From: a plasmid
Reading direction: 5' to 3' (one strand)
DNA: 64,000 nt
Sequence record: NZ_CP015284.1
In this document: one piece after another, positions 1 to 26,685 of the stretch
Layout: every line of letters starts with the position of its first letter
Numbering within the stretch: position 1 is the stretch's first letter
Program-made: the position numbers and the translations under genes
The notes under the pieces: model-generated
Database searches by the model: none
Told to the model about the DNA's origin: nothing
What the model saw: the letters and a program-made list of their open reading frames with translations, nothing else

Positions 1-33
1 AACACCACATTTGTCTGAAAGGAACTAACATAA

Positions 34-978
34 ATGACCTATACTCATCTTATCACAAACGAGCTTGTAATGATAGAGGCTTACTATCAAGAAGACATAA
101 AAGTTTCAGATATTGTGACTTCACTTGGCAGATCAAAACAGACAATCTACAATGTCATCAACTATCTGAAAGAGGGGCACTCTGCTTATGATTACTATAA
201 CCGATATAAAATCAATAAGAAACGCTGTGGCAGGAATAAAACCAGTCTTACGCAATCAGAAAAAGATTTTATCCAAACTCATTTAGAACAAAATTGGAGC
301 CTTGATGTCATTAAAGGAACTTATCCAGATAGGGTTGCTTGTTCTATGAGAACTCTCTATCGACTAGCAGACCATGGTATTCTAAAGAAAGAGGATCTCC
401 CTTGGAAAGGCAAAAGAAAACCAAATGGTCATAGCGAAAAACGAGGAAAACAAGCGTTGCGCAGAGATTTAAGTGAGAGAGCAGACAGTCATCCTAATTT
501 TAAGACGGGATTCGGTCATCTAGAAGGGGATACAATTGTGGGAGAAAAACACAAAAGTGCAGTCATTACCTTAGTAGAATGCTTCTCAAAAGCCATCATC
601 ACACTGAAAATCAATGGATGGAAAGCAAGTGATATTGAGGCCTCCATCAATCAATGGTTGTCTCAAGTTCCCAGTCATCTCTTTAAGTCGATAACTTTTG
701 ATTGTGGGAAAGAATTTTCTAATTGGAAATCTATTTCGAATGCACATGACATTGATATTTTCTTTGCGGATCCAGGATGTCCTGGTCAAAGAGGTCTCAA
801 TGAACATTCTAATGGCTTATTAAGACGAAATGGATTACCGAAACAGATGGTTTTTACTAATATTTCTCAAAAATATTTATCAGCTATAGCTGATAAAAGA
901 AATAGAATTTCTAGGAAATCATTGAATTATCAATCACCATACCAAGTTTTTCTGAGTTACTTGAAAAGTCTAACTTAA
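34..978 (+). CDS. IS30-family transposase (intact, 314 aa)
   Basis: N-terminal HTH followed by a DDE/rve-like domain (HLEGDTIVG...; FDCGKEF). The size and layout are typical of IS30-family transposases. Confidence 0.85.
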   Translation: MTYTHLITNELVMIEAYYQEDIKVSDIVTSLGRSKQTIYNVINYLKEGHSAYDYYNRYKINKKRCGRNKTSLTQSEKDFIQTHLEQNWSLDVIKGTYPDRVACSMRTLYRLADHGILKKEDLPWKGKRKPNGHSEKRGKQALRRDLSERADSHPNFKTGFGHLEGDTIVGEKHKSAVITLVECFSKAIITLKINGWKASDIEASINQWLSQVPSHLFKSITFDCGKEFSNWKSISNAHDIDIFFADPGCPGQRGLNEHSNGLLRRNGLPKQMVFTNISQKYLSAIADKRNRISRKSLNYQSPYQVFLSYLKSLT

Positions 979-1004
979 TTTAACAATTTAGGAATATAGG
1001 GTAT

Positions 1005-1278
1005 TATTAAGTGAAATCAATTTTTTTACAATAGATTCATACAGAGTCACTTATTCTTAAATAATGAAGGAGAACAGAAATGAAAAATATCTTATCTTTA
1101 CAACAACTTAAAGTAAAAGAAAATACTAAATTGATGGCTAAATCATCAAAAAGCATAAACTGTAAAAATAGTAGCCATGCTAGCTGGTTTGTTTGCTAGT
1201 CTCTAAAATTAAAATTACTTTTCATTTTTTATCTTAGTTTTATAGGAGGAATCAAATGAAGAAAATACTATCTTTACA
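1005..1278 (+). repeat. ~274-bp segment duplicated at 9956..10228 (~98% identity); covers the promoter/RBS region, peptide A and the start of the second peptide gene
   Basis: Direct comparison of the two stretches shows one 1-nt indel and a few substitutions. Confidence 0.85.
1080..1199 (+). CDS. small peptide A (39 aa, MKNILSLQQLKVKENTKLMAKSSKSINCKNSSHASWFVC); candidate pheromone/RiPP-type precursor
   Basis: A strong RBS (AAGGAGA) sits 6 nt upstream of the ATG. It has two paralogues that share a leader and a C-terminal Cys/Trp motif. It is below the 60-aa threshold of the ORF track. Confidence 0.4.
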   Translation: MKNILSLQQLKVKENTKLMAKSSKSINCKNSSHASWFVC

Positions 1279-1369
1279 GCAATTAAAAAAAACAGAAAGA
1301 GCTAAAACGAAATCTAGTATGAGTTTGAACTGTCAAATGAGTAGTAATAATAGCTGGTTTTTCTGCTAA
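1256..1369 (+). CDS. small peptide B (37 aa, MKKILSLQQLKKTERAKTKSSMSLNCQMSSNNSWFFC)
   Basis: RBS AGGAGGA. It is a paralogue of peptide A, sharing the MK(N/K)ILSLQQLK leader and the NCxxSSxxSWFxC tail. Confidence 0.4.
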   Translation: MKKILSLQQLKKTERAKTKSSMSLNCQMSSNNSWFFC

Positions 1370-1405
1370 AAAAGTATTTTAAATGTTTACCTAATAATAC
1401 CCTAA

Positions 1406-1432
1406 CTAGCCTTGAAAGTTTTTCAAGGCTAG
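1406..1432 (+). promoter_or_regulatory. perfect 11-bp inverted repeat (CTAGCCTTGAA-N5-TTCAAGGCTAG) between the peptide genes and the ABC transporter, with no T-tract
   Basis: Read directly from the sequence. It could be a readthrough-limiting hairpin or processing site, or an operator. Confidence 0.4.
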
Positions 1433-3175
1433 TTGCATAGTGAGAGTAATGATATGAAAAAAAATAATTATTTAGATATAGCTTATTTAAAAAAGTATCT
1501 ACCAAATAATTTTTATCTTTTCTTTTTGAGCTTACTAATACTAACTGGTACGATTGTCTCTTTAAGTATTCCAATTTTTATTATGGGAATAATTAATAAT
1601 ATGAAAAATGGGATTCATATCAGTAGTATATTAGTTGTTATTTCACTTTTCCTTATAGAATTATGCTTCACAGCAGTTTCGTATTATTTCATTAATAAAA
1701 CATCGGAAAGGATTGTAGAGCAGATACGTAACGAAATATGGATGCACATTTTAAAGTTGCCAGTCTCATATTTTGATAAAAATCGTTATGGGGCGGTTGT
1801 AACAAATATTATTCATGATACTGAAGAAATATTAGAATTTTTCAACAGTCAAATAAGCTCTTTTTTTACAAATGTTATATCTATAATTGGCTCTATTGTA
1901 ATTTTGTTCGTATTGGATTGGAAGTTAGCAATTTTATTAGGTGTGGCTGTTCCTATAGCTGTTCTGCTTACTAGTTATTTTGGTAATCAAGAATACACGA
2001 TATCAATGAGATATAGAGAAAGTATTGCGCACTTACAGAATAATCTTACATCTACTCTTTCAAAAATTAGGTTAGTAAAATCGACGACTTCGGAAGAGAC
2101 CGAGTTTCAGAAAGAGAGTGAATTATTTAATTCTTTATATAAGACTGGTGTAGAAGAAGGAAAAATATTGGGTATTCTTTCACCAATTTCTTCTATGGTA
2201 GTTATGCTACTCTTAGTTGTAACCTTTGGTTACGGTACCTACCGGGTATCAAATGGAACCCTATCGAGTGGAGCATTAGTTGCAAGTATTGTATATTTAT
2301 TTCAATTAGCTGATCCGTTTTCGCAAATTATTTCGTTTTTCACAAGCTATCAAAAATTTAGAGCCTCGGTCGTGAAGATAGGAGAATTACTTCAAGAACC
2401 GATTGAAGCTGATTTGGTTTTGGAGTTCAAACAGGCTAAATGTACAGATAGAGATGGTTTATTATTTAAAAATATCGATTTCTCTTATACAAAAGAAGAT
2501 GTCATATTTAATAACCTAGACTTTGAATTTCAATTGTACAAAACAACGGCCATTATTGGTAGGAGTGGAGTTGGAAAAACAACAATATTTTCATTGATAG
2601 AAAGATTTTATGTACCAACTCAAGGTAGTATCTTATTCCGCAATAAAGATATTGCCAGTATTCCTTTAAAAACTTGGCGGTCTAAAATTGCTTATTTATC
2701 GCAGGATATTGATTTGTCATACGGGACACTTTTAGAAAATTTAACTTACGGTATACACAATTATACGATGAACAAAGTAGATAACTTAGTTGAGGAATTT
2801 GGATTAAAATCATTTTTAGATAGTCTAGAAATGGGATATAATACTATCATTGGCGAGAAGGGAGTAACAATTTCGGGTGGTCAAAAGCAGCGAATTGCCC
2901 TTATTAGGGCAATATTGAAAGATGCTGATATTTACTTACTTGATGAGCCAACCTCAGCACTTGATGCACATACAGAAAAACTTGTTCAAATCACCTTAGA
3001 AAGATATTTGAAAGGAAAGACTGTCCTAGTTATAGCACATAGATTGAAAACAATTACCTCTGCAGATGAAATTGTTATTGTAAATAATAAGAAAATTGAA
3101 TATCACGGTACTCACAATGAATTATTAAATTCTTGTCACTTGTATAATCAGTTACTGGAGGATAGTGTACTATAA
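1433..3175 (+). CDS. ABC transporter, fused permease/ATP-binding exporter (ABCB-type half transporter); the true start is probably the ATG at 1454
   Basis: N-terminal TM region, then Walker A GRSGVGKTT, ABC signature LSGGQKQRIALIRA and Walker B IYLLDEPTSALD. There is no N-terminal C39 peptidase domain. Confidence 0.9.
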   Translation: MHSESNDMKKNNYLDIAYLKKYLPNNFYLFFLSLLILTGTIVSLSIPIFIMGIINNMKNGIHISSILVVISLFLIELCFTAVSYYFINKTSERIVEQIRNEIWMHILKLPVSYFDKNRYGAVVTNIIHDTEEILEFFNSQISSFFTNVISIIGSIVILFVLDWKLAILLGVAVPIAVLLTSYFGNQEYTISMRYRESIAHLQNNLTSTLSKIRLVKSTTSEETEFQKESELFNSLYKTGVEEGKILGILSPISSMVVMLLLVVTFGYGTYRVSNGTLSSGALVASIVYLFQLADPFSQIISFFTSYQKFRASVVKIGELLQEPIEADLVLEFKQAKCTDRDGLLFKNIDFSYTKEDVIFNNLDFEFQLYKTTAIIGRSGVGKTTIFSLIERFYVPTQGSILFRNKDIASIPLKTWRSKIAYLSQDIDLSYGTLLENLTYGIHNYTMNKVDNLVEEFGLKSFLDSLEMGYNTIIGEKGVTISGGQKQRIALIRAILKDADIYLLDEPTSALDAHTEKLVQITLERYLKGKTVLVIAHRLKTITSADEIVIVNNKKIEYHGTHNELLNSCHLYNQLLEDSVL

Positions 3176-4157: not shown

Positions 4158-5249
4158 CTATTGTCGATTGTCTTTTTCGTTTCTCATAGAAATCTGCGAT
4201 ATGGCAGGGATTGGTATGGCTAGCTGAAGCGATATTGTGAATACATTTGTACAGAATTTTTTTGCATAAGGATTCCCACGCTTAGTAATATGCTCTTGAC
4301 CTAGGAAATCTCCCGATTCATAGTGTTTGAGATCAATACCGATAAAAGCGTTGATTTGATTAGCAGACGTAAAGCGACGAATGTCTCCTAATTCACCAAT
4401 AACGCTTGTAGCCGTTGTCTCTGCGATGCCAGGAATAGAGAGAAGAATCTCATATTCAGGTAGAGGTTTAGCTAACTCTATCAACTGTTCTAAAACTTGT
4501 TCCCGACGGTTTGTCAACCTTATAAGTTCCTGTGCATTATACTTAACCTCTTCTATTATAGGAGAGGTTTTTGAAATGGCAGAATAAGATTGCTTTGCCA
4601 GTCCAACTAACTTCTCAGCCAAGTTATCTACTCTGTTCTCTGAAATGCGTTTAGAGGTTGACTGGCGAATAGTCTCTTTCAACTCAACTTCCGATAATTC
4701 CAGCACCCAATGCTTTGTTGGGAAGATGGACACGAGATTCCAATACTGCTCACCTGCAGGAGTAGATAGTAGAATCCCGATTTCTGGGAAGGCGACTTGA
4801 AGAACTTTGTGCAGCCTATTCTTCGTCCTTACGATATCCTCTGTCAGATTTTGGTAGAACCGGCTAAGATCATGCAAGTTTTGATAGACTTTTTCTTGAA
4901 CATAAGTTGGCTTACGGTTTAAAACGAATTGTGACGAAGCTAGTTTCTCTGCGTCAATTTTATCGGTTTTCCGGACTCGTAAGCTATCAAGTTGCTTTTT
5001 AGCTTCCAAAGGATTAAGACGTGTATAGTCATAGCTGTTTTCTTCTAGAAAAGCCTGAAGTCGGCGAGAGTAGACACCAGTAGCTTCGGAAATAATTTCG
5101 GGGTTACTCACGGTCTTTAGGTCCTTCAGTAGACGAGAAAATCCGATAATGTCATTAGACATAGTATAACCGTGAACCCTTTCACCATTCACAAAAATAG
5201 CAACTTCTGAGCTTGCTTTACTCACATCAATTCCAAATACTGTCCGCAT
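4158..5249 (-). CDS. IS110-family transposase (363 aa)
   Basis: N-terminal GIDVSK DEDD-type motif and a C-terminal IS116/IS110/IS902-type domain (IPGIAETTATSVIGELGDIRRF). Confidence 0.85.
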   Translation of the reverse strand: MRTVFGIDVSKASSEVAIFVNGERVHGYTMSNDIIGFSRLLKDLKTVSNPEIISEATGVYSRRLQAFLEENSYDYTRLNPLEAKKQLDSLRVRKTDKIDAEKLASSQFVLNRKPTYVQEKVYQNLHDLSRFYQNLTEDIVRTKNRLHKVLQVAFPEIGILLSTPAGEQYWNLVSIFPTKHWVLELSEVELKETIRQSTSKRISENRVDNLAEKLVGLAKQSYSAISKTSPIIEEVKYNAQELIRLTNRREQVLEQLIELAKPLPEYEILLSIPGIAETTATSVIGELGDIRRFTSANQINAFIGIDLKHYESGDFLGQEHITKRGNPYAKKFCTNVFTISLQLAIPIPAISQISMRNEKDNRQ

Positions 5250-5496
5250 TATGTTTACCTCTTTGTCTTGAACGATTCCTTATTTTAGTGATTTCATTTT
5301 CAATACTCGACGTCTAGCGTCCAACATACTTTGATAAAATTCCATCTAAAACAGGTGTCTTGCCAGTTTTTTATACGGCGTCTAGCGCCAAAAGAAGCCA
5401 CGACTTAACAAGACACCTCTACTTTAACACAAAGAAAAAGTAGTGAGTACTCACTCCCGTCGGAGATTTCTTCACTACTAATCTTAGTATGTTTTT

Positions 5497-6712
5497 TATA
5501 TTCAGAGTGATGAAAACACGCTTCCTAAAGTTAATAAAGTTTCTAAAACCGAATCCCAGACGTTTGATGTCTTTGATAAGCTTATTGGTGCCCTCCAATT
5601 TTGCATTTGAGTAATGTGTTTCTAGTGCGTTTTTGATGTATTGTTTGTGTCTAAGAAAGGTTCTAAAGACAGTTTGAAAGTAGTGATTGACCTTACTTAT
5701 ATTCTCCTCTATGAGTTCAAAAAACTCATCAATTCTTTTTTCTGAAAATAAAAAAGCAAAAACTTGTAGAGGTTATAGTCATTAGCGAGCTCTTTTGAAA
5801 AGTCCAATATCTTCACGGTGACTTCATTTGACTTAAAGTTTGACAAAAGGTCTTTGAGTGAAATGAGTTACAAGATAACTTACGGCTATCCTTTTGGAAG
5901 AGTCTCCAGTGATTTTTCAAGGCTCGGTAGGGTAGTGACTTCTTATCAAACTGATTCATAATGGCAATTCTTGTCTTCAAAAAGGCTCGACCAAGGTGTT
6001 GGATGATGTGGAAACGATCAATAATGATTTCGGCATTTGGGAAAAGTCTACGAGCTAGTGGGATATAGGCTCCTGACATATCCATTGTAATAAACTGCAC
6101 TTTTTGGCGAACCTTCAATGGATACTTCAAAAAGTGGTTTCGAATAGTGGTTTGACGGCGATTATCAAGGATGGTTATGAGTTTGTTGGTCTCATAGTTT
6201 TGTGCCACAAAAGCGAGTTCACCTTTCTTGAACCCAAACTCATCCCAAGACATAACAGCTGGGAGCTTGTCATAATGCTCCTTGAAAGTAAACTAGTCAA
6301 GCTTACGATAGACAGTGGACGTTGATACACGAAGTCTTCTGGCAATATCTGTTAGTGACACCTTTTCAGTAAGGAGCTGTGCAACTTTTTGCCGGACTAG
6401 ATTGGAGATTTGGCAGTTTTTCTCAACGATTGATGTCTTAGCTACCGTGACTCTCCTACAACTTTTACACTGGAAACGACGCTTTTTAAGACGTAATAGT
6501 GTAGGTGTTCCAGCTTGTTCAAGGAGAGAAATTTTAGAAGGCTTTTGAAAGTCATATGTGATCAACTTTCCTTGGCAGTGAGGACATGATGGTGCAGGGG
6601 AATCCAGTTTTGCATGAATTTCGATATGAGTATCAGTTTCAAAAACAAGAGAAATAATGATGTTAGGGTCTTTAATTCCGATTAATTCTGTGGTATTCTT
6701 AATAAGTCTCAT
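5497..6712 (-). pseudogene. ISL3-family transposase, frameshifted/degenerate copy; the left terminal hairpin/IR is retained to ~6833 and the right end is missing
   Basis: ORF fragments 6293..6712 and 5813..6253 are about 90% identical to the N-terminal and middle parts of the intact copy at 20592..21848. The reading frame is broken and the tail continues to ~5497 by DNA similarity. Confidence 0.8.
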
Positions 6713-6954
6713 AAGTTCTTCCTAATGATGGTTTGGTTGCTTTTCATTATAGTTCTTATGGGACTTTTTGTCTGCATTCAAAAAGCTCTATAATCTCTAC
6801 AGTGGTTTTACCCACTACAGAAATTATAGAGCCTGTTACACCTTGTTATTGAATACTTACGAATAAATAGCCAATTTTTTAAAATTATTGACAAAAAAAT
6901 ATTATTGTCTTACAATAATATCGAAGAAAGAATTATTGTAAGGCAATAATTGAG

Positions 6955-7485
6955 GTGTTTAACATGAAAAAAATATTAAAAATAACAAGTCATCTCTTGT
7001 CTCTAATGAGGTATCCTGTTTGGGGAATAAATTTCCTGTTATTTTTAGGAATAGTAGGAGTTTTATTTGGGGGACAGAGAAGTCATTGGATGTTTACATT
7101 TGACTATGGTGATTCCATTATTGATGTTCCAATAATTTTTCCATTAGTTATTCTTATATTGTTGATTATAATTTTTGTTTTTATTATCCAGTTATTAAAA
7201 ATTTGGAGTAAGTTGTTATTTGGTTTCAGTAAGGGTCAATTTTTTAGTGGTGAGAATCTTAAAAAATTAAAAAGATCGATGATATTTCTAGTTTTGGTGA
7301 CTGCTATTCAATTATTGATTAATCTAATATTCAACTATTTAAGTGTAGAAAATGTTAGTGAAGTATTTGATTTTTCGTTGAAAAATTACGTGGTACATAC
7401 TGTATTCATATTATTTAACGCTATATTGATTATCGTATTGGAAAAAGGAAAAAATATTCAAAAAGAAAATGAGGACTTTATTTAA
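6955..7485 (+). CDS. small polytopic membrane protein (DUF2975-like)
   Basis: It has four hydrophobic segments. It overlaps the downstream XRE regulator gene, which is a common two-gene module. Confidence 0.5.
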   Translation: MFNMKKILKITSHLLSLMRYPVWGINFLLFLGIVGVLFGGQRSHWMFTFDYGDSIIDVPIIFPLVILILLIIIFVFIIQLLKIWSKLLFGFSKGQFFSGENLKKLKRSMIFLVLVTAIQLLINLIFNYLSVENVSEVFDFSLKNYVVHTVFILFNAILIIVLEKGKNIQKENEDFI

Positions 7486-7714
7486 TGTAATGGATAAGAT
7501 ACAAATAAATTTAGAAAAGTTAATTAAAGAAAAGAAACTTACATCTAAAGAAGTTGCAAAAAGAATAAATATCACAGAGGCAAATCTATCAATTTTGAAA
7601 ACGGGAAAAGCAAAAGGCATACGTTTCACTACACTCTTACGAATATGTAGAGCACTTGATTGTCAACCTGGTGATATTTTAGAGTATGTTAGGAGTGAAA
7701 ACCATGAAGATTAA
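7469..7714 (+). CDS. XRE-family HTH transcriptional regulator (81 aa)
   Basis: HTH motif LTSKEVAKRINITEANLSILKTGK. It overlaps the end of the upstream membrane-protein gene (7469 < 7485). Confidence 0.7.
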   Translation: MRTLFNVMDKIQINLEKLIKEKKLTSKEVAKRINITEANLSILKTGKAKGIRFTTLLRICRALDCQPGDILEYVRSENHED

Positions 7715-8156
7715 AAAAGTAATATTATGTATGATCTTTACTCTTGCAAGCATTATGCTAGTTTCATGTAGTATAAATGAAACAGTAAAAGATGTTACAC
7801 AAGAAATAGAACAACAAATATCCAAAGATGATACAGATAATTTAGGTATAACTTATATTACGGAACAAAAAGAAGGGGAGACTCTAAAAGCATCATTTAC
7901 TGATTTTGATGGGGTTATTTATGTAATTAGTACTAAAGAGAATATTGAGTCAATAAAGAATTCAGATTTTAGTTTGGATAATAAAAATTTCGAAGATGTT
8001 AAAACTGATTCCTACGATGATTTCAATATTCGTTATAAAAATAAAACTTATTTTTCGGTTAAAAAACTTGATATAGAGTCAAATAATATTACTTCATTAA
8101 AATTTAATTCAGATTATTCAAAGAGTATTTTATTAGTTTATAGAACAAAAAACTAG
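7686..8156 (+). CDS. putative lipoprotein (signal peptide with lipobox LVSC)
   Basis: N-terminus MKIKKVILCMIFTLASIMLVSCS. It overlaps the upstream regulator gene (7686 < 7714). Confidence 0.55.
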   Translation: MLGVKTMKIKKVILCMIFTLASIMLVSCSINETVKDVTQEIEQQISKDDTDNLGITYITEQKEGETLKASFTDFDGVIYVISTKENIESIKNSDFSLDNKNFEDVKTDSYDDFNIRYKNKTYFSVKKLDIESNNITSLKFNSDYSKSILLVYRTKN

Positions 8157-10030
8157 TTTGTAGTCATAACTAGGGGGGTAGTAGTACTATGGCGAATATT
8201 TCGCTTATAGTGCTTTTGTGTACGACGTCATGTCGTACATCTGTGGTGAAATTCCCACGGTTCACTTGTTACGGGCGAAACAAATAACCCAATAGAGACT
8301 CCTAAGTTTGACGATTGTGATCTTGAGGAGAGGGGAAGTGATAGCAAAATTGTGGCTCTACAAACAAAATCAGATATAGGTAGATGAGGAAATCTAAAGT
8401 GTTCTTGCCAAAGTTTAGTTGAGCAGTCGTATGCCGAACGACATGTACGGTGGTAGTAGAGGCGCTACAAGTTGGCCTCTACTCTATTTTAGTGATTTTA
8501 GTCCGTTTTATTCCGCAGGAGAAAAAAACACTAGGTGCTAGAGGTAATTGAAAAAGTCAGTCACAGCAAATATTATTCATATAATATTTGCTGTGAAGAA
8601 AAGTACAAACATAAAATCGAATGATAGACAATTTCTGAGTTTTATAGGAAATATATCATTCGGTTTTTACTAACTGAAATGCTAATGCTTTTACAATTTT
8701 CAGTTGACTAGGCAAGTGCTGACTGGTTTATAGCCTTTTACAAGATGCACGATTGATGGGTGGTTGTTATTTTTTTCTGGAAGAGACAGGAAAAATCAAA
8801 ATCTTACTGATTTTCTCAAATTTTAACAATAAGAAATCATATGATATCAATTGACATCAATGTTTTTTAATAAAAGATTTAAAGCGATTTTGTTAATTAT
8901 GTTAATATAGATTTTTGCCCCAAAATATCATGGCCAAATTATTAATGGACGATATAAAGCAAGTATCGGTCATAATAATTTGAGATTTGTGTGAACGAAA
9001 AGGTGTTATCATACATGAAGCTAATGCTTGTTCAGATTATATTCGCATATTAGTCAGTATATCATCCAAATTAAGTGTTTTAGGTTTTATGGGCTACTTA
9101 AAAGGTAAAAGTTGATTGATGATTTTTGGCAAATGTGTGAATTTTAAATACAAATAAGGGAACAGAAAATTTTGGTGTAGTGGTTACTTATTATGGTCGC
9201 AATCAAAAAGTGATTGCAGAATATATACAAAATCAATTGCAAGATGACAGGGTAGCTGACCAACTGACCTTGCTTGAGACAGTTGATCCGTTTACAAGCG
9301 AAGCAAATAAAAAAGTAGGATAGTGGTGCGCAAGGAAGCTACTTTGGGTGAGGTTGTGTCCTAGGTCGGTAAGAGTGACCTTTCTCGATATCTTTAGAAT
9401 CTTGTCCATTTCTCAGAAACAGTCTTGGCTAAGAGATGTTTTTTGGGGTTATTTGGGCGTAATAGAACTTTTTTCAAAAATCATACCAAGGATAACTTTA
9501 TAGACATGGGGTGCCGGTGCCTTATTGAGTGGGTGACAACCACCTTATCCTTTAGTAGAATGGGCCTCTTAACGCTCTTTGAAATAGCTGTAGGCGCTTA
9601 TACTGCCCAATGTTTTTGAAAGTCGTTCTATATGGATATCCACTCTATCTGAAAGAGTTAAGTGTTTATATTTCATAGCTTCTTCTCTAGCAGAAAAGCT
9701 TCAGACTTGATACCACCACAAAACACGATTCATGTTAACTTCCGATTTTGAAGATAATGTGGAACTTAATATGAAAAATAACTCGATGAGGTAATTTTTT
9801 ATTTTACTTTCCAAATTTAAAAAAGATATGATATAATATGTAAGAAGAAAGCGCTATCACTACCCTGAAATGAGGTGAAATTACTTTCCGATATGAAAAT
9901 AATATTCAATAATTACAATATTCACTAACATATTGGGTATTCGATTTTTCTAATTTATTAAGTGAAATTAATTCTTTTACAATAGATTTATACAGAGTCA
10001 CTTATTCTTAAATAATGAAGGAGAACAGAA

Positions 10031-10150
10031 ATGAAAAATATCTTATCTTTACAACAACTTAAAGTAAAAGAAAATACTAAATTGATGGCTAAATCATCAA
10101 AAAGTATGAATTGTAAAAATAGTAGCCATGCTAGCTGGTTTGTTTGCTAG
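10031..10150 (+). CDS. small peptide A' (39 aa, a copy of peptide A with I26M)
   Basis: It lies inside the duplicated segment and keeps the same RBS. Confidence 0.4.
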   Translation: MKNILSLQQLKVKENTKLMAKSSKSMNCKNSSHASWFVC

Positions 10151-10205
10151 TCTCTAAAATTAAATTACTTTTCATTTTTTATCTTAGTTTTATAGGAGGA
10201 ATCAA

Positions 10206-10343
10206 ATGAAGAAAATACTATCTTTACAAACGTTGATTTCTACTGAAAAAGCAACGTTGTGCAATGCCTCCAATCTTAGTGTGACGTGTAAAAAACAAAG
10301 TTCAATTAGCTTGTTTTTATGTGTTAAAACTACGGATAAATAG
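10206..10343 (+). CDS. small peptide C (45 aa, MKKILSLQTLISTEKATLCNASNLSVTCKKQSSISLFLCVKTTDK)
   Basis: RBS AGGAGGA. It shares the MKKILSLQ leader, and its tail has multiple Cys and Asn/Ser residues. Confidence 0.35.
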   Translation: MKKILSLQTLISTEKATLCNASNLSVTCKKQSSISLFLCVKTTDK

Positions 10344-10392
10344 CTGATTGCAATAAGACTTTGATTTATTGTTTAAGGTTGATTTAAAACTT

Positions 10393-10437
10393 AACAACTA
10401 TAAAAATTGTAAATTAATTTTTATAGTTGTTTTTTTG
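10393..10437 (+). terminator. rho-independent terminator (16-bp perfect stem AACAACTATAAAAATT/AATTTTTATAGTTGTT followed by a T-run) after peptide C
   Basis: Read directly from the sequence. Confidence 0.7.
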
Positions 10438-10592
10438 TATTACCTCTAACCTTCGTACTAAGCTATTGCCTTCCAAATAAGAAGTGATAAGTACAATAAG
10501 AGTCCTTCCATTACTTTGGAGTCTTGGAGTGGTTTATCAACATCCCTTGAGGAAGATGACTTTTTGGAAGACAAACGTCAAGTAACCCTTGT

Positions 10593-11315
10593 TCAACCTG
10601 GAGAAACAAGTGTTAAAGCGTTTGGTATTGATATTTCCCTATCTGAAGTGAAGGTTTTAAGAGCCTCTTTTGGAAATAGCTTACAAAGTTGTTCGATGGC
10701 TGAAAACATGGATTTGGCTGTTCTGTCTGGTATCTTGAAAGCTAGGTAAAAGTGCGTTTTTCGCTCTAGAAAGGTCGCTAAACAGCCCTTGCTTTTGCCT
10801 CTGGAAGACACCACAGTATCGCTCTCCCAGTGACCAAAGGTCTCACGATTCCTGACCTCTTTAGGACGTTTGGCAATCGACGTACCAATCCTAAAGGTTC
10901 CACGTGTTTCTTTGGGTTGTCGAGTTTTTCCTTTACGACGAAGGACGCTTAAATCCAGATCAATCAAACCAGCATAGAGCCAGTTATAGATAGTTTTAAA
11001 AGCTACCATTGCCTTTTGTTCAAGCTGATAGCGGCCACAAATCTGTTCCGGCGATCAGGAGGATTTTAAACCGTCCTCAATTTCCTTTTTCAACTTTGGT
11101 GTCAAACGAGACTTCCGACCTTTTTGCTTAGCCCTGTGGTCATACTGTTCCTGTGCTAAGGCTGCGGAATAACCATTTTGGTATCGTCTTAACTCTCTTG
11201 AAATAGTAGACTTATGGACGCCAAGTTTATTTGTAATTTGGCAAGGTTTCAAACCTAATTCCAAGTAGGTTTCTATCTTTATTCGGTCGGTTATGGTAAG
11301 ATGGGAGTAGCTCAT
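10593..11315 (-). pseudogene. IS30-family transposase, degenerate (HTH fragment 11055..11315 and DDE fragment 10593..11009 in different frames)
   Basis: The N-terminal fragment has an HTH (KLGVHKSTISRELRR). The C-terminal fragment has the DDE region (HWESDTVV...). It is a different IS30 member from the one at 34..978. Confidence 0.7.
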
Positions 11316-13085: not shown

Positions 13086-13190
13086 TTGACAGCGTTCGAG
13101 ATTGTGCAAACCATTCTAGGCTTTGGTAGTTTTACTATCGCTCTAATTGGATTATGCTACAAACTCTTTAAAGACGATGACAAAAAATAA
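13086..13190 (+). CDS. putative holin-like toxin (34 aa, (M)TAFEIVQTILGFGSFTIALIGLCYKLFKDDDKK) with a TTG start
   Basis: RBS AGGAGA 5 nt upstream. It has a single TM helix and a charged C-terminal tail, typical of the small 'holin-like toxin' family of Firmicutes. The ORF track missed it. Confidence 0.5.
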   Translation: MTAFEIVQTILGFGSFTIALIGLCYKLFKDDDKK

Positions 13191-14506: not shown

Positions 14507-15301
14507 TTACATAAGTACAATCTTGCCAAAAATGCTGAAATCATCCTTTTCTGACAAGGTGATAGGTGCCTCGTTAGAATTTAACGAGTTAAGAAGAATG
14601 TCACCATTATCTATATTTTGACTTACCTTCATTACGTGGTACTTACTCTTTAGCTGCACGATGCAGATATCACCTGTTCGAAGGATGGAGTCTTTCATGA
14701 CAAACATTACTTCATCATCGAAGAAACTAGGTTCCAAGGAATCACCAACAACCTTAAACGCAATATCATGTACCGGAATAGGAACAGGGTAGTCGAGACA
14801 GTCAACTGGGACCTCTGATACTTCAAACCCTTGTGCATCTACTTTAGCATAAATACTAACTCTTTTGGTTGGTCGTTGATCTTGTTTAACTATTTGTTTT
14901 CTATGGTCATTTTCTTTGATTTCTTTAGAGATATGCTGATTATCTAATCGATTTTCTATGAAATCAACAGTCGCGTCTTGGTTTCCTTCATCAAGCTCCT
15001 TAAACATTTCCTCTACTTGCTCTTGCTTATTGTCGTTAATTGGTGGGTAAGCATACTTGCTTGGTGAGTCCGATAATCCTAGTAAGTAGTCTGACGTCAC
15101 CCCAAATAATCCAACTAACTTCACAAGATCTTTAAATGTAGGGGCATTACTTCCATTTTCCCACTTTCCAACAGTTTGTTGTGTTTTCCCTATTTTGGCA
15201 CTAAATTCCTTTTTAGTCCAACCTCTAGCTTGTCGGAGTTTAATTAATCGGTCAGTAAACATTTCCCCCATTAAATTATTACTATCCTTACACTCTTTCA
15301 T
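14507..15301 (-). CDS. CI/LexA-like repressor (N-terminal XRE HTH plus C-terminal S24 peptidase domain)
   Basis: HTH WTKKEFSAKIGKTQQTVGKWENG. The C-terminus (VVGDSLEP...GDICIV) resembles the S24 autopeptidase fold. Confidence 0.8.
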   Translation of the reverse strand: MKECKDSNNLMGEMFTDRLIKLRQARGWTKKEFSAKIGKTQQTVGKWENGSNAPTFKDLVKLVGLFGVTSDYLLGLSDSPSKYAYPPINDNKQEQVEEMFKELDEGNQDATVDFIENRLDNQHISKEIKENDHRKQIVKQDQRPTKRVSIYAKVDAQGFEVSEVPVDCLDYPVPIPVHDIAFKVVGDSLEPSFFDDEVMFVMKDSILRTGDICIVQLKSKYHVMKVSQNIDNGDILLNSLNSNEAPITLSEKDDFSIFGKIVLM

Positions 15302-20561: not shown

Positions 20562-21972
20562 TCTTTGTCAACTGTAGTGGGTGACGAAAAGCTAACATCT
20601 AGAGAGGACCTGATAGGTCTTCTCTTTTTTTATGTTCAGAGTGATTAAGATCCGCTTCCTAAAGTTGATGAAGTTTCTAAAACCAAATCCTAGACGTTTG
20701 ATGTCTTTGATCAACTTGTTAGTCGCTTCAAGTTTTGCATTTGAATAGTCCGTTTCTAGTGCGTTTTTGATGTATTGCTTGTGTCTAAGAAAAGTCCTAA
20801 AGACAGTTTGAAAATAATGATTAACCTTGCTCCTATTTTCCTCTATCAGCTCAAAGAACTCAGCTACTCTCTTCTCCTGAAAATGAAAAAGTAAGATCTG
20901 ATAAAGTGTATAGTAGTCGGTAAGCTCTTCTGAAAAGTCTAGTGTTTTCCCAACAACTTCATGTGGACTTAAGGTTTGGTGGAATGTCTTTGAATAAAAA
21001 GAGTTGAGAGATAACTTACGGCTGTCCTTTTGGAAGAGTCGCCAATGATTTTTCAAGGCTCGATAGGGTAGTGACTTCTTATCGAACTGGTTCATAATCG
21101 CAATTCTTGTCTTTAAAAAGGCACGACCAAGGTGCTGGATAATGTGGAAACGATCAAGAACGATTTTAGCGTTTGGAAAAAGTCTTTTGGCAAGTGGAAT
21201 ATAAGCTCCAGACATATCCATCGTGATAAACTGCACCTGTTGGCGAGCTTTTAATGGATACTTTAAAAAGTAGTTTCGTATAGAGGTTTGGCGACGATTA
21301 TCAAGGATGGTTATGAGTTCGTTTGTCTCATAATTCTGCGCCACAAAAGCCAATTCCCCTTTCTTGAACCCAAACTCATCCCAGGACATAACAGCTGGAA
21401 GTTTGTCATAATGTTCTTTGAAAGTGAACTGGTCAAGCTTACGATAGACAGTGGACGTCGACACACGAAGTCTTCTGGCAATATCAGTTAGTGAGACCTT
21501 CTCAGTTAGGAGTTGTGCAACCTTTTGTCGGACTAGATTGGAGATTTGGCAGTTTTTCTCAACGATTGATGTCTCAGCTACCGTGACTCGTCTACAACTT
21601 TTACACTGAAAGCGACGTTTCTTCAGACGTAGTAGTGTTGGAGTTCCCGTTTGCTCGAGAAGAGGGATTTTAGAAGGCTTTTGAAAGTCATATTTGATCA
21701 TCTTTCCTTGGCAGTGAGGACATGATGGTGCAGGGTAATCAAGTTTTGCTTGAATCTCTATATGAGTGTCAGTTTCAAAAACAAGTGAAATCTTGATATT
21801 TTGGTCTTTAATTCCGATTAATTCTGTGGTATTCTTAATAAGTCTCATAAGTTCTTCCTAATGATGGTTTGGTCGCTTTTCATTATAGTTCTTATGGGAC
21901 TTTTTGTGTACACTTAAAAAGCTCTATAATCTCTACAGTGGTTTTACCCACTACAGAAATTATAGAGCCATA
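20562..21972 (-). mobile_element. complete ISL3-family insertion sequence (IS1193-like, ~1.41 kb)
   Basis: Terminal inverted repeats GGCTCTTTGTCAACTGTAGTGGGT (right) and GGCTCTATAATTTCTGTAGTGGGT (left) flank an intact transposase gene. Confidence 0.85.
20592..21848 (-). CDS. ISL3-family transposase (418 aa, intact)
   Basis: N-terminal zinc finger (CPHCQG...CKSCRR) and a DDE core. It is the full-length counterpart of the pseudogene at 5497..6712. Confidence 0.9.
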   Translation of the reverse strand: MRLIKNTTELIGIKDQNIKISLVFETDTHIEIQAKLDYPAPSCPHCQGKMIKYDFQKPSKIPLLEQTGTPTLLRLKKRRFQCKSCRRVTVAETSIVEKNCQISNLVRQKVAQLLTEKVSLTDIARRLRVSTSTVYRKLDQFTFKEHYDKLPAVMSWDEFGFKKGELAFVAQNYETNELITILDNRRQTSIRNYFLKYPLKARQQVQFITMDMSGAYIPLAKRLFPNAKIVLDRFHIIQHLGRAFLKTRIAIMNQFDKKSLPYRALKNHWRLFQKDSRKLSLNSFYSKTFHQTLSPHEVVGKTLDFSEELTDYYTLYQILLFHFQEKRVAEFFELIEENRSKVNHYFQTVFRTFLRHKQYIKNALETDYSNAKLEATNKLIKDIKRLGFGFRNFINFRKRILITLNIKKEKTYQVLSRC

Positions 21973-22153: not shown

Positions 22154-23227
22154 ATGAAACAAGAAACACTAATGAAAAATATAAACGAGTTGCTTGAGAT
22201 TATGCCTTGGTATGTTAAGGAATATTATCAAGCAAAGCTCGTTATTCCATATAGCTATAAGACACTGTATGAGTACTTAAAGGAATATAGACGATTTTTT
22301 GAATGGTTGATTAGTGATCATGAGAAATTGGGTGAAACTGTACGATATGCAGATTATGATACGATTGCCGATGTTCATATTGATGAGCTGGCCCATTTAC
22401 CAAAGTCTGTTATCGAAGCCTATTTTGTCTATCTTCGTGAAAATACTGAGCGTCGTTCAATCTCTGAAGTCAGCATTGTTCGGACTAAGGATGCTCTCTC
22501 AAGTTTGTTTAAGTATCTTACTCAAGAGACTGAGGATGACGAGGGTGAGCCTTATTTTTACCGAAATGTCATGGTTAAGGTCAAAATCAAGAAACCTAAA
22601 GATACCTTGGCAAGTCGTGCTGATAACATGAAAGAAAAACTCTTTTTAAATGATACACAGTCTTTCTTGGACTATATCGATAATGAGCATGAAAAGAAAA
22701 TCTCAAAACGTGCCCAGGTATCCTTTGTCAAAAATAAAGAGCGTGATCTTGCTGTCATAGCACTTCTACTCTCTACTGGAGTCCGGTTATCTGAATTAGT
22801 GAACCTAGATATGCAAGATGTCAATCTAGCCACAAGAACAATTACAGTCATTCGAAAAGGTGGGAAAAAGGACGTTGTAAATATCGCTCCATTTGGACTA
22901 CCTTATATCGAGCGATACTTAGAAATTAGGAAGGGACGCTACTCAGCAAGTGATTCAGATAAAGCATTCTTCTTAACAACTCAGAATAAAGTGCCTGCAA
23001 GGCTTGGAACACGTTCTGTCGAGCTATTGGTGAAGAAGTTATCTACCGCCTATGGTAAACCCACTACTCCTCACAAATTGCGACACACACTTGCGACACG
23101 TCTATATGAGCAAACAAAAGACAGCCTCCTAGTCTCCCAACAATTGGGACACAAGGGGACTGCAATGGTAGAGGTATATGCACACGTAGCTGCAGAGACA
23201 ACTAAGGAAGCTTTGAGTGATTTATAA
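22154..23227 (+). CDS. xerS: XerS-type tyrosine recombinase (chromosome dimer resolution)
   Basis: 357 aa. It has the N-terminal MPWYVKEYYQAKL signature of XerS and the C-terminal R...HxxR...Y catalytic region (LRHTLATRLY...GHKG...VEVYAHV). Confidence 0.8.
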   Translation: MKQETLMKNINELLEIMPWYVKEYYQAKLVIPYSYKTLYEYLKEYRRFFEWLISDHEKLGETVRYADYDTIADVHIDELAHLPKSVIEAYFVYLRENTERRSISEVSIVRTKDALSSLFKYLTQETEDDEGEPYFYRNVMVKVKIKKPKDTLASRADNMKEKLFLNDTQSFLDYIDNEHEKKISKRAQVSFVKNKERDLAVIALLLSTGVRLSELVNLDMQDVNLATRTITVIRKGGKKDVVNIAPFGLPYIERYLEIRKGRYSASDSDKAFFLTTQNKVPARLGTRSVELLVKKLSTAYGKPTTPHKLRHTLATRLYEQTKDSLLVSQQLGHKGTAMVEVYAHVAAETTKEALSDL

Positions 23228-23449: not shown

Positions 23450-24835
23450 TTATGAACGTCTGTGACGCCCTTTATAAACGAAGCTTGTCAAACCAAGTCC
23501 TACCAAAACCATACCTAGCATACCAACTTTAGAGTTTGTATCTCCTGTTTTTGGTAAATCGTGACTTGTCAATTTTCCATCAGCTTCCGATTTAATTCCT
23601 GCATTACGTGTTTGTGTAAATGGAGAAGTGACAGAATTCATGGAATGAATGTTTTTTGAAGGCACTAGACTTGTAGCAGGTGTTGTGCTGACCGCAGGTG
23701 CTTCACTTGTAGCAGGTGTTGTGCTAACTGCAGGTGCTTCACTTGTAGCAGGTGTTGTGCTAACTGCAGGTGCTTCACTAGTAGCAGGTGTTGTGCTAAC
23801 CGCAGGTGCTTCACTTGTAGCAGGTGTTGTGCTGACCGCAGGTGCTTCACTTGTAGCAGGTGTTGTGCTAACTGCAGGTGCTTCACTTGTAGCAGGTGTT
23901 GTGCTAACTGCAGGTGCTTCACTAGTAGCAGGTGTTGTGCTAACTGCAGGTGCTTCACTAGTAGCAGGCGTTGTGCTGACTGCAGGTGCTTCACTTACTG
24001 AATTAGGGTTAGTTCTATAATAACGATAATATAGGGCATCATCCTCATAGTTGGCATGGCCAAATAACCCTGGTTCTTCCGTTGTGATAATATCTCCAAC
24101 CGAATACTTCTTACCATTAGATCCAGTAATTGTGTAGTATGGGTACCCTTCCAGCTCGTCACCTGGCATTACAGTATATCCTTTAGGGGTAACTACGTTA
24201 CCAGTGAGCCAGCTGATTGTAGGGTCATCTGATGCTGAATAATTAAGGTATAACATGCGATTAAGACTAGGATCGTTATCAGATATTGGATTTTCACTAG
24301 TAGCCGGCGTTGTGCTAACCGCAGGCGCCTCACTAGTAGCCGGCGTTGTGCTGTTCGCAGGTGCTTCACTTGTATTATCAGAGTTTAGAGGATAATAGTA
24401 GTAATATAGTCTATTATCTTCCTCGTTCTTGTGATTTACTAAAGGATCATTGACAGTTATAATATCGCCGACATTGTAATGTTTGCCGGTGTCATCGAAT
24501 ACGTCATAATGACTATATGTTCCAGGGTTACGAAAGTTCTCATCTACAACGTATGGTTCGCTAGGTTTAATAACCCGACCTGACATACTACCACTATCAG
24601 GTTTATCGGGATAATCTGCCGAATAAACATAGAACATACGCCAATCATTATAGTTAGCATCACTAGCTGTTTCTTCAGCATATACCTTTGTAGATGACTG
24701 ACCGAATTGAGTTTGCACAGCAGTTGCAAGAGTAATTGCTGCAACTAAAACAATTCCATATTTAGAAAACTTATTAATAGACAAAATAAACCTCCAGGGC
24801 AACATTATATAATTTTTAGAAATATAAATTATCAC
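23450..24835 (-). CDS. LPXTG cell-wall-anchored surface protein with a 12-aa tandem repeat region (SEAPAVSTTPAT x ~10)
   Basis: It has a signal peptide. The C-terminus has LPKTG, then a hydrophobic stretch and a KGRHRRS tail. Confidence 0.85.
   Translation of the reverse strand: MIIYISKNYIMLPWRFILSINKFSKYGIVLVAAITLATAVQTQFGQSSTKVYAEETASDANYNDWRMFYVYSADYPDKPDSGSMSGRVIKPSEPYVVDENFRNPGTYSHYDVFDDTGKHYNVGDIITVNDPLVNHKNEEDNRLYYYYYPLNSDNTSEAPANSTTPATSEAPAVSTTPATSENPISDNDPSLNRMLYLNYSASDDPTISWLTGNVVTPKGYTVMPGDELEGYPYYTITGSNGKKYSVGDIITTEEPGLFGHANYEDDALYYRYYRTNPNSVSEAPAVSTTPATSEAPAVSTTPATSEAPAVSTTPATSEAPAVSTTPATSEAPAVSTTPATSEAPAVSTTPATSEAPAVSTTPATSEAPAVSTTPATSEAPAVSTTPATSLVPSKNIHSMNSVTSPFTQTRNAGIKSEADGKLTSHDLPKTGDTNSKVGMLGMVLVGLGLTSFVYKGRHRRS
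23665..24000. repeat. 36-bp tandem repeat array (~9-10 copies) inside the LPXTG gene; 2 further copies at ~24290-24360
   Basis: The unit GCAGGTGTTGTGCTAACTGCAGGTGCTTCACTTGTA repeats near-perfectly on the plus strand. Confidence 0.9.
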
Positions 24836-24919: not shown

Positions 24920-25273
24920 CTAACTTCTTAGAGTTGGTGCAATTTGAAGGATATTATCGAGTTGAACTAATCTATACCCTTCACTAGTCTTTATTGATAT
25001 TTCCTTACGAGACAGTTCTCTCACTTCACCAAATAAAGTAATTTTATTATCACGATGTTTGATAGTGAATTGCCCTTTAAGTTGGTTGGCATAGAGTTGA
25101 GAAAGTAATAAGAGTTTTTGAGGTTTACTTAAGTCTGTTGTGAAGTCAACACGATATTTAGCAGCATGTAATGATGAGGTATGCTCGGACAGAAAGAATC
25201 CCATCCACTTTTGCATCCCTGGATCCTGGTATTCTCTTGCTGCTTGAAATGGTAAATAAGAACGATCAATCAT
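24920..25273 (-). CDS. YolD-like protein (UmuD-like accessory partner of Y-family polymerases in Firmicutes)
   Basis: 117 aa. It sits immediately downstream of the UmuC-like gene and overlaps it by 4 bp, the typical uvrX/yolD arrangement. Confidence 0.55.
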   Translation of the reverse strand: MIDRSYLPFQAAREYQDPGMQKWMGFFLSEHTSSLHAAKYRVDFTTDLSKPQKLLLLSQLYANQLKGQFTIKHRDNKITLFGEVRELSRKEISIKTSEGYRLVQLDNILQIAPTLRS

Positions 25274-26685
25274 TTTAAACCATCCAATCCTCCAGCAGAA
25301 TGTCCTCCGATGAGCCTACTTCTGGCAATACTTCTTGATGCCCCGTCAAGTGCATTAGCTTTTAGCAGAGAGGTAAAGCCAAATTGGTCTCTGATAGAAT
25401 CTATTGCTGTCTGGAGCCTTTCTTCTTTTTCAATTTGTTCGACATCATCGAATAGTGAGATTAATCCAAAAGATTCATCTACAAACCCAGAATAATTAAC
25501 CGCTACACTTCGGATTGCCCCTGAAGTGTATTTATTATGGAATAATTTCAACACATAGTTTGTCAGCATGTCGGTGTTATTCGTTGGTTCAATTTTCATT
25601 TGGGTATTGATAGAACGCTTGTTCTCATGCTTAGAGTAGCCAAGGTGTATTGAAACAACAGTCGCTTTCTTGCCTATCTTTCTCAGTCGGATAGCAACTT
25701 GTTCGGCCATCTCTCTAAGGACAATTTCAATATCTCGTTGTCTAAAATAGTCTCTAGGGAGAACCTGGGAGTTGCCTAGACCTTTTGATTTTGGTTTATA
25801 GGGTTTATGAACGTTACTTTCATCAATACCATTAGCATGAAACCATAAACGAAGGCCCGCTTCTCCTAGTTCTTTCTTCAAGATATCTGGGTTAGCATTT
25901 GCCAAGTCTTTGATTGAGTGGATATCTAACGTGTTGAAGCGTTTCTCCATTCTTTTACCTATACCCCAGAAATCAGTCATCTTAGGAATAGACCAGACCT
26001 TATTCTCCACATCCTCATAGGACCAGTTAGCTCTCATGGTTGAAGTTTTCTTTGCTTCATTATCAAGTGCTAGTTTAGCTAGTAAAGGGTTAGCATTGGA
26101 CATACCAACGGTTGAATAGATGCCAGTTTGTCTCCAGATGTCCCTTTGGATCCTCGCAGAAATAAGGTCGAGCTTTTGCTTTCGAGATAACTGCTTATCT
26201 GGAACGAAGTAATTAAGAGAACTAGACAGGTCGATAAAACCCTCGTCTATAGAATAAGGGTAAATATCATTTGGGCTACCATAGTTTTGAAAAATGCCTT
26301 GGATTTCCATATTAACTGAGATATATTCGTCCATTCTAGGAGGAACGATGAAAGTCACTTTTGCCCAATCTTCAATGAATCTCACGTATTCTGGATCTGT
26401 TCTCAGTCCTTGTCTCTTGGCATTGTAATACGAGAACCTTCTTGTTTGAACATCAAAAGGGAGATCGTATGCTCTTCCAACATTTGATTTTCCAAACACT
26501 TTCTTAAATATCGGTGAAGAAGCAAGGATAAGACCTGCAGAGTTATCAGCTCTACTCATAACACATAAAGAAGTCTTTAAAGGATGTAGTCCTCTCTCAA
26601 CACATTCGACGCTAGCGTAAAACGACTTCATATCGATAAAAGCGATATCGCTTCTTGGTTCTCTTGAATAATCAAAATATCCCAT
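25270..26685 (-). CDS. Y-family DNA polymerase (UmuC/ImpB/UvrX-like translesion polymerase)
   Basis: The N-terminus has IAFIDMKSFYASVE...SRADNSAGLILASSPIFKK (UmuC motifs) and a little-finger C-terminal domain. Confidence 0.85.
   Translation of the reverse strand: MGYFDYSREPRSDIAFIDMKSFYASVECVERGLHPLKTSLCVMSRADNSAGLILASSPIFKKVFGKSNVGRAYDLPFDVQTRRFSYYNAKRQGLRTDPEYVRFIEDWAKVTFIVPPRMDEYISVNMEIQGIFQNYGSPNDIYPYSIDEGFIDLSSSLNYFVPDKQLSRKQKLDLISARIQRDIWRQTGIYSTVGMSNANPLLAKLALDNEAKKTSTMRANWSYEDVENKVWSIPKMTDFWGIGKRMEKRFNTLDIHSIKDLANANPDILKKELGEAGLRLWFHANGIDESNVHKPYKPKSKGLGNSQVLPRDYFRQRDIEIVLREMAEQVAIRLRKIGKKATVVSIHLGYSKHENKRSINTQMKIEPTNNTDMLTNYVLKLFHNKYTSGAIRSVAVNYSGFVDESFGLISLFDDVEQIEKEERLQTAIDSIRDQFGFTSLLKANALDGASRSIARSRLIGGHSAGGLDGLK

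Follow-up and report, generated by a model that had tools for sequence, protein, structure and literature searches.

The window analysed here is a 64,000-nucleotide (nt) stretch of plasmid DNA (sequence record NZ_CP015284.1), near the left end of which two small open reading frames (ORFs) encode peptides of 39 and 37 amino acids (aa) directly upstream of a fused ABC exporter. Comparison of the peptides and their gene neighbourhoods indicates that these ORFs are very probably the lanA structural genes of a class III lanthipeptide cluster of Streptococcus salivarius. We assign them to class III because they match the curated model NF038159, share invariant leader and ring-forming motifs and evolve under purifying selection, because the class III synthetase gene lanKC lies upstream of them in a nearly identical metagenome contig (termed L007), because related clusters occur without the interrupting IS30 insertion sequence (IS), and because the RefSeq names of the peptides agree.

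Precursor peptides and their family

The precursor genes occur in two copies of the locus:

1080..1199, + strand: lanA1, predicted class III lanthipeptide precursor of 39 aa, MKNILSLQQLKVKENTKLMAKSSKSINCKNSSHASWFVC (NF038159, WP_198166469.1)
1256..1369, + strand: lanA2, predicted class III lanthipeptide precursor of 37 aa, MKKILSLQQLKKTERAKTKSSMSLNCQMSSNNSWFFC (NF038159, WP_198166468.1)
9955..10150, + strand: second copy, comprising the lanA1 upstream region and lanA1' (94% DNA repeat, WP_198166467.1)
10206..10343, + strand: lanA3, predicted class III lanthipeptide precursor of 45 aa (NF038159, Pfam RamS, WP_198166470.1)

Shine-Dalgarno sequences (GAAGGAG for lanA1 and AGGAGG for lanA2) precede the first two genes, 6-7 nt 5' of each ATG. 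The second pair belongs to a partial duplication of the locus (1004-1229 versus 9955-10180, 94% DNA identity), in which lanA1' (10031..10150) differs from lanA1 by a single substitution, I26M, and is followed by lanA3. An earlier reading of this DNA from its letters (the sequence-only reading) had singled out the 39-aa and 37-aa ORFs for their strong ribosome-binding sites and their position directly 5' of a fused ABC exporter lacking a C39 domain, and had seen a 45-aa third paralogue in the duplicated copy; the gene coordinates, Shine-Dalgarno sequences and Pfam domains agree with it on each count. It had also excluded a double-glycine leader, and Gly-Gly is indeed absent from all the precursor peptides.

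Each peptide combines a class III leader motif with two ring-forming motifs, SxxSxxC and SxxSxxxC. In A1, the leader motif ILSLQ occupies residues 4-8, and the core motifs are S22-x2-S25-x2-C28 and S32-x2-S35-x3-C39. The corresponding motifs of A2 are S20-x2-S23-x2-C26 and S30-x2-S33-x3-C37, and those of A3 are S22-x2-S25-x2-C28 and S32-x2-S35-x3-C39, followed by a tail of VKTTDK. The shared C-terminal tail described in the sequence-only reading is present, but its spacing is N-C-x2-S-S-x2-S-W-F-x-C and not the S-S-x3-S given there.

On NF038159 (class III lanthipeptide; NCBIfam lanthi_III_b), A1, A2 and A3 score 55.6, 42.6 and 50.2 bits, with E-values of 3.8e-15, 4.6e-11 and 1.9e-13, compared to a curated cut-off of 30 bits; the model has 38 positions and all three matches run end to end, over positions 1-38. 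Weaker matches, sub-threshold to threshold, were obtained with Pfam RamS (PF19402) and the SapB/AmfS model NF033212, and only A3 passes the RamS cut-off, at 24.8 bits. An exact-sequence look-up in RefSeq returned the name "class III lanthipeptide [Streptococcus salivarius]" for all four peptides, and a sequence search of the PDB with the 39-aa peptide gave no match. The family had been taken for an undescribed one, which the NCBIfam model, the weaker RamS/SapB match and the RefSeq names already in place contradict; likewise, the ORFs are unannotated in the raw window but not in RefSeq. The option of a ribosomally synthesised and post-translationally modified peptide (RiPP), with precursors and a dedicated exporter, is supported by the NF038159 matches and by the LanKC gene found upstream.

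A search with a seven-sequence alignment as query recovered homologues from S. salivarius, an S. vestibularis-like genome, S. sanguinis, S. pantholopis, S. suis and one further streptococcal lineage. The same anatomy of a leader and two motifs is found in every homologue recovered, from at least six streptococcal lineages. The leader recognition motif (I/L/V)(L/F)xLQ takes the form ILSLQ, invariant in A1, A2 and A3, and (I/V)L(S/A)LQ in all homologues, and each peptide has two S-x2-S-x2-5-C core motifs with invariant Ser and Cys columns. When A1, A2 and A3 are aligned with their orthologues, no variation is seen at M1, K2, I4 L5 S6 L7 Q8, S22, S25, C28, S32, S35, F37 and C39. Between S. salivarius and either S. 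sanguinis or the streptococcal locus L009, the ratio of nonsynonymous to synonymous substitution rates (dN/dS) is 0.01-0.03 for A1, ~0.1 for A2 and 0.18 for A3, at a dS of 0.7-1.6. Since these ratios are so low despite the high dS, the small ORFs are, judged by their substitution pattern, real genes under strong purifying selection and not fragments of a larger gene. A ratio near 1, or descent from a disrupted gene, had been named as grounds for abandoning them; the ratios and the conservation of the genes across lineages speak otherwise.

LanKC and protease genes beyond the IS30 insertion

Neither a lanKC fragment nor the protease gene described below was found inside the window by tblastn and blastn. 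Because the window begins inside an IS30 element, both genes lie off its left edge:

1..995, + strand: IS30-family element, in which the window starts ~55 nt from the left end, with a 314-aa transposase ORF (34..978) carrying an rve domain
996..1079, + strand: native lanA1 upstream region with a conserved block, …AAGTGAAATCAAT…TTTTTACAATAGAT…, putative lanA promoter/operator

The missing genes are seen in L007, which is 99.97% identical to positions 1-11199 of the window (11.2 kb), reaches 4 kb further left and is one of eight metagenome contigs with an identical lanA1. In L007, the gene directly 5' of that for the IS30 transposase has an 854-aa product (S. salivarius LanKC, WP_084871559.1). 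On NF038151, the model for the class III lanthionine synthetase LanKC, this protein reaches 781 bits (cut-off 575 bits), compared to a sub-threshold 291 bits on the class IV model (cut-off 650). It consists of RamC_N, Pkinase and LANC_like domains, and its cyclase domain has neither of the Zn-ligand motifs CHG and WCxG. The 3' end of lanKC lies ~35 nt short of the IS30 left end, in agreement with the earlier suggestion that a modifying enzyme had been separated from the peptides by IS30. In S. sanguinis and L009, lanKC and lanA1 are directly adjacent, and the LanKC neighbourhood that defines class III precursors is thereby seen both through L007 and in these relatives. The neighbourhood search proposed in the sequence-only reading was fruitful in returning LanKC and an S1 protease; it returned neither a radical SAM enzyme nor an Rgg/ComR-type regulator.

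The IS30 element is bounded by terminal inverted repeats of 31 nt (L007 3937-3967 and 4965-4995), the right one corresponding to window positions ~968-998. It ends at ~995, 84 nt 5' of the lanA1 ATG, and sits in the lanKC-lanA1 spacer, co-directional with the operon. This spacer is uninterrupted in S. sanguinis (L010 and L011) and in L009, where the insertion point maps between TATAAT and ATAGGG. BCC16R and SK115R are S. sanguinis strains with the uninterrupted form. An alignment of six upstream regions showed that the block preceding lanA1 is conserved in both copies and in three species, with a -10-like TACAAT at 1027-1032 that reads TA(C/T)AAT across the alignment, and it is a putative lanA promoter/operator. 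Because this block lies between the insertion point and lanA1, the lanA promoter region likely survives. The right end of IS30 itself supplies TTAACA 16 nt before TATTAT, the best promoter-like site of the region, such matches being no commoner here than in shuffled sequence.

Consensus scans for promoters and terminators performed no better than shuffles in this AT-rich DNA, and hairpins were therefore located by folding:

1403..1435, + strand: 15-bp stem-loop without a U-tract, between lanA2 and the exporter gene
10393..10438, + strand: AT-rich 17-bp hairpin followed by a U-run, 3' of lanA3

The first hairpin folds at -20.5 kcal/mol (z = -3.7), has an inverted repeat at the same place in S. 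sanguinis and is probably a transcript-stabilising or partial-termination element. The second (-25 kcal/mol, z = -4.9) is probably the intrinsic terminator of lanA3.

The protease gene (L007:647-1327) lies 5' of lanKC and encodes a 226-aa protein (WP_084871558.1) of the trypsin/chymotrypsin fold (S1 family), which scores 25.8 bits on Pfam Trypsin (cut-off 20.6), keeps its His, Asp and Ser motifs (TAAHC, YDIA and GMSGGP) intact and has no signal peptide. Orthologues of 226-231 aa are encoded at L009:9302-9979, L010:9291-9998 and L012:2220-2915, and the gene is found immediately 5' of lanKC in four streptococcal lineages. For class III systems, leader peptidases of families S8, S9, M1 and M16 are listed (PMC10885120). 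We found no report of an S1/trypsin-like protease in lanthipeptide maturation in a literature search of partial coverage, which makes this weak evidence of absence.

Comparison with known class III systems

LanKC was compared with known enzymes by bit scores and motif checks. Its best solved relatives are TherKC of class III-c (9wj0, 540 bits) and ThurKC of class III-a (8sao, 527 bits), compared to 255 bits for the class III-b enzymes PneKC/SalKC, and the best stretch against PneKC covers only the lyase-kinase half (residues 27-436). None of the three class III-b cyclase motifs FPVHYYG, QxxQxxRxLPY and GxxxAGDxG (PMC11330476) was found in LanKC, even in loosened form. Class III-c cyclases are marked by LIxGDIRQ, LRSGLAGIGL, GLIDGWSGVS and GILxxNPLYWLP, with Arg685 as a dimerisation hotspot (PMC13504147). 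LanKC has the first exactly (LIPGDIRQ) and the second and third at 7/10 positions each (LMTGLSGIGL and GLFDGWSGAV), whereas the C-terminal GILxxNPLYWLP is absent and Arg685 aligns to Lys. Since the full-length scores against TherKC and ThurKC are nearly equal, the III-b motifs are absent and the III-c motifs are partial, LanKC is placed by these comparisons on the III-a/III-c side, fitting neither published subclass cleanly.

The likeness to the ThurKC and TherKC systems (PDB 8SAO and 9WJ0; PMC13504147) extends to a three-domain LanKC (lyase, kinase and zinc-free cyclase) that aligns over the full length, a hydrophobic xLxLQ-type leader motif, multiple near-identical precursor genes and an ABC exporter. 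The first core motif, SSKSINCK, also resembles the labionin-forming STxSNxC / STVSNNCK. By contrast, the second motif here is SxxSxxxC, closer to III-b and III-d substrates, and a Thr-rich TITTT stretch is missing; one fused half-transporter takes the place of the heterodimeric exporter, and the protease belongs to family S1 instead of M16. With PneA/PneKC of S. pneumoniae and SalKC (PDB 8W7A and 9UGQ; PMC11330476), the cluster shares a leader that is short and helical and two Ser/Ser/Cys motifs in tandem. The Pne system is also a streptococcal class III system with a second precursor copy elsewhere in the cluster that differs by one residue, but it has an S9 peptidase and a heterodimeric ABC transporter.

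More distantly, the ~40-aa precursors, the two ring motifs and the RamC_N domain of the synthetase recall the morphogenetic lanthipeptides SapB/AmfS of Streptomyces (RamS/RamC), which however belong to another phylum; here there is no developmental context, and a single exporter stands in place of RamAB. The amylopeptins (AmyP, S8) and the paenithopeptins/bacinapeptins (PttP1/P2, M16) likewise come from Firmicute or gut-associated class III clusters with a protease able to remove the leader (PMC10885120), although the protease here is a 226-aa S1 fold without a signal peptide. The pneumococcal lcpAMT locus, considered as a possible SapB-like class III system, was ruled out as a comparison, the paper showing it to be class II (LanM plus a C39 transporter).

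Exporter and organisation of the cluster

The remaining features of the cluster are as follows:

1454..3175, + strand: fused ABC exporter of 573 aa with transmembrane and nucleotide-binding domains (Pfam ABC_membrane and ABC_tran only)
6955..7485, + strand: DUF2975 membrane protein (Pfam PF11188; synteny in L009, L010, L012 and L016/17)
7469..7714, + strand: Cro/C1-type HTH_26 regulator of 81 aa (Pfam PF13443, 83.7 bits; conserved synteny), candidate regulator
7704..8156, + strand: small lipoprotein with lipobox LVSC, mature form ~130 aa (from the sequence; conserved synteny)
10593..11315, - strand: broken IS30-family transposase in pieces of 138 aa and 86 aa, which bounds the second copy (ORFs; rve and HTH_38 matches in identical contigs)

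The exporter has no C39 peptidase, since ABC_membrane and ABC_tran are its only domains and the membrane domain starts at residue 23. It keeps its position 3' of lanA2 in all related clusters and is probably a LanT-type exporter of the modified peptides. The small lipoprotein has no family match, and its AlphaFold2 model (pLDDT 67) gave generic β-sandwich matches; an immunity role for it is possible, if unproven.

The conserved gene order is S1 protease, LanKC, lanA1, lanA2, ABC exporter, DUF2975, HTH_26 regulator, lipoprotein, second lanA1 and lanA3, and tblastn with context look-ups showed that this synteny extends to five or more further streptococcal genomes or contigs. S. salivarius follows the same order with two interruptions, IS30 between lanKC and lanA1, and IS110 and ISL3 elements (4158..6712) that part the exporter from the DUF2975 gene. 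The IS110-family transposase is intact (4158..5249, - strand), whereas the ISL3 transposase is split (5813..6712, - strand) and shares 83-85% DNA identity with an intact copy at 20592..21848. Fragments of an IS200-like element and of an IS30 N-terminus lie ahead of the second lanA copy, within 8987-9676. In S. sanguinis and in the S. vestibularis-like genome, the same cluster is free of the IS30 insertion.

The orientation of the second pair, lanA1 and lanA3, differs: S. sanguinis, L009 and S. pantholopis have it inverted, S. salivarius and L012/L013 direct. The S. sanguinis repeat (L010:12401-12892 versus L010:17240-16749) spans 492 nt at 99.8% identity and includes the last ~160 nt of lanKC, so that the second copy keeps a 3' fragment of lanKC that has been lost from the second copy in S. 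salivarius. The inverted lanA1 repeat is also found in L011, L009 and L017. Inverted repeats around the segment from exporter to lipoprotein could allow an inversion that swaps A2 and A3 behind full-length lanKC; the two S. pantholopis strains compared show no polymorphism.

The cluster as a possible relic

Three further observations concern the state of the cluster. In S. pantholopis (L016 and L017, ~10001-14227), lanA1, lanA2 and lanA3 occur with a shortened ABC gene between the Fic and rpsB genes, and neither LanKC nor an S1 protease gene adjoins them; they are apparently orphan precursors. In a diverged S. salivarius-like strain (L005), lanA1' is frameshifted to 28 aa (19144-19230) and the lipoprotein gene is in three pieces (16755-17212), signs that the cluster is decaying in some strains. 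In the window and L007, every cluster ORF is intact, including the protease and LanKC genes of L007.

These data bear on the alternative that the genes are true lanA genes in a decaying relic that yields no product in this strain, a scenario that is compatible with the identification and concerns activity only. IS30 would uncouple lanA1 and lanA2 from lanKC, IS110/ISL3 split the cluster, and IS debris bounds the second copy; the three IS insertions or remnants within the cluster, the damaged L005 locus and the truncated S. pantholopis exporter without an adjacent LanKC all fit it. However, beside the intact ORFs, the IS30 insertion leaves the conserved block upstream of lanA1 untouched, the element is co-directional and brings its own TTAACA/TATTAT promoter-like site, and the IS-bearing arrangement is found in all eight S. 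salivarius contigs listed. We consider a relic unlikely, though it is the alternative that survives best.

Other identities for the peptides

A second alternative takes the peptides, left unmodified or processed only lightly, for quorum-sensing pheromones (SHP, XIP or Phr-like) that the ABC protein would export and a cytoplasmic regulator would sense, an option that the sequence-only reading had also offered. Their small size, the hydrophobic Trp/Phe/Cys C-terminus, the adjoining exporter and the XRE-type helix-turn-helix (HTH) gene conserved in the cluster would suit it. Yet no Rgg, ComR or PlcR-type (TPR) receptor gene adjoins the peptides, and no Rgg/ComR-type receptor gene was found in the clusters of S. 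salivarius, S. sanguinis, L009, L012 or S. suis. Conservation falls on the Ser and Cys ring positions and does not outline a short C-terminal pheromone, the peptides pass a curated lanthipeptide hidden Markov model, and linkage to LanKC recurs in four lineages, all of which make the pheromone model very improbable. A modified lanthipeptide acting as a signal is conceivable, but that is a different model.

Membership of another RiPP class (a radical-SAM sactipeptide or ranthipeptide, or a class I/II lantibiotic), or an unmodified class II bacteriocin, is hardly credible: the core is rich in Cys and Ser and the 45-aa paralogue has three Cys, but no radical SAM, LanB/LanC or LanM gene was found in any related locus, four of the five lineages carry LanKC, which is missing only from the degenerate S. 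pantholopis locus, neither a double-glycine leader nor a C39 domain occurs, and position 19, where A3 has its extra Cys, varies (Ser in S. pantholopis, His in S. suis). The marks of a PCAT-type system, a GG/GA cleavage site and a C39 domain on the transporter, were likewise looked for and not found.

Proposed biosynthesis

For the preferred reading, a class III lanthipeptide cluster, we infer a pathway from the characterised LanKC enzymes ThurKC, TherKC and PneKC. LanKC systems bind a leader helix, phosphorylate Ser before elimination and act on SxxSxx(x)C ring motifs (PMC11330476, PMC13504147). The kinase domain would phosphorylate the Ser residues of both core motifs (SxxSxxC and SxxSxxxC), and the lyase domain would eliminate the phosphate to give dehydroalanines. 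The zinc-free cyclase domain would then add each Cys thiol to a dehydroalanine to form lanthionine, or, if the enolate attacks a second dehydroalanine in a second Michael addition, labionin; either way, each peptide would carry two rings. For leader removal, the cytoplasmic trypsin-fold protease encoded in the cluster is the most plausible candidate. Possible cleavage sites are those after K21 in A1 and K19 in A2, or the one after Glu14, which all three S. salivarius precursors have and S. sanguinis A2 does not conserve. The ABC exporter would secrete the product. As for function, competition within communities of the mouth and gut, in a bacteriocin-like or surface-active manner, appears most likely, and this is the least certain step of the proposal. 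Such a bacteriocin-like role is hinted at because the lipoprotein, DUF2975 and HTH genes are conserved, which suggests regulation or self-protection.

Several points weigh against this reading or restrict it. The lanthipeptide assignment here rests on genes and sequence comparison, and the sequence does not predict whether the rings are labionin or lanthionine. LanKC and the protease lie outside the window, and their presence in this exact genome is taken from the 99.97%-identical metagenome contig. The leader-peptidase role of the S1 protease is drawn solely from conserved adjacency, and S1 is outside the families listed for class III. With IS30 between lanKC and lanA1 and IS110/ISL3 between the exporter and DUF2975, expression or stoichiometry may be disturbed in this strain. 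The structural model of the lipoprotein shows no resemblance to known LanI immunity proteins, and many class III lanthipeptides are without antibiotic activity.

The duplicated cassette of promoter and lanA1 pairs an identical A1 with A2 in one copy and with A3 in the other. Its orientation, inverted in some species and direct in others, may point to a product set of several components or one that can be switched. It is possible, if doubtful, that the streptococcal clade represents an uncharacterised class III sub-type, in which an S1 leader peptidase and a LanKC intermediate to subclasses III-a and III-c would serve three two-ring precursors together with the duplicated promoter-lanA1 cassette.

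Wider window

Beyond the cluster, the window from ~15600 to 62000 resembles an integrative conjugative element. Its genes and those at its margin include an S24/XRE repressor (14507..15301), a tyrosine integrase (22154..23227), an ImpB/MucB protein (25270..26685), an LPXTG protein (28466..31210), an antigen I/II-family adhesin (33679..36219), a topoisomerase (38416..40812), an MmeI-type restriction-modification enzyme (42451..45231), a peptidoglycan hydrolase (47056..49107) and a TraG-like ATPase (50582..52543). The lanthipeptide cluster may be cargo of an island, because a gene for a 1,832-aa SNF2 helicase lies left of it in related contigs.

Three more observations concern the window. The MmeI-family enzyme encoded at 42451..45231 is a complete, single-polypeptide restriction-modification enzyme of type IIL, with all five MmeI domains at 75-291 bits. 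At least nine tandem 36-nt (12-aa) repeats of 92-96% identity occupy 23588-24032, within a 461-aa ORF (23450..24835, - strand) that has no Pfam match. Two 300-nt stretches (11696-11995 and 14493-14792) share 89% identity, the first being a truncated duplicate of that part of the repressor gene 14507..15301 which encodes the C-terminal S24 peptidase.

Implications

What had looked like an unknown peptide family is an annotated RiPP precursor family, the enzyme of which had been obscured by an IS insertion and by the edge of the window. RefSeq already annotates this known family, and its S. salivarius member is experimentally uncharacterised; what novelty is left concerns the S1 protease, which is conserved, a LanKC of intermediate subtype and the duplication of the lanA1 cassette with its two different partner peptides. 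Our literature searches turned up no characterised class III lanthipeptide from S. salivarius, S. sanguinis or S. suis.

S. salivarius is a dominant commensal of the mouth and upper gut and a probiotic valued for its class I and II lantibiotics. With its product characterised, the ThurKC/TherKC side of the LanKC tree would gain a streptococcal example. Such work would also put the S1 protease to the test as a class III leader peptidase, leader removal being a practical bottleneck in RiPP production, and would show how a two-ring class III peptide acts in a mucosal community.

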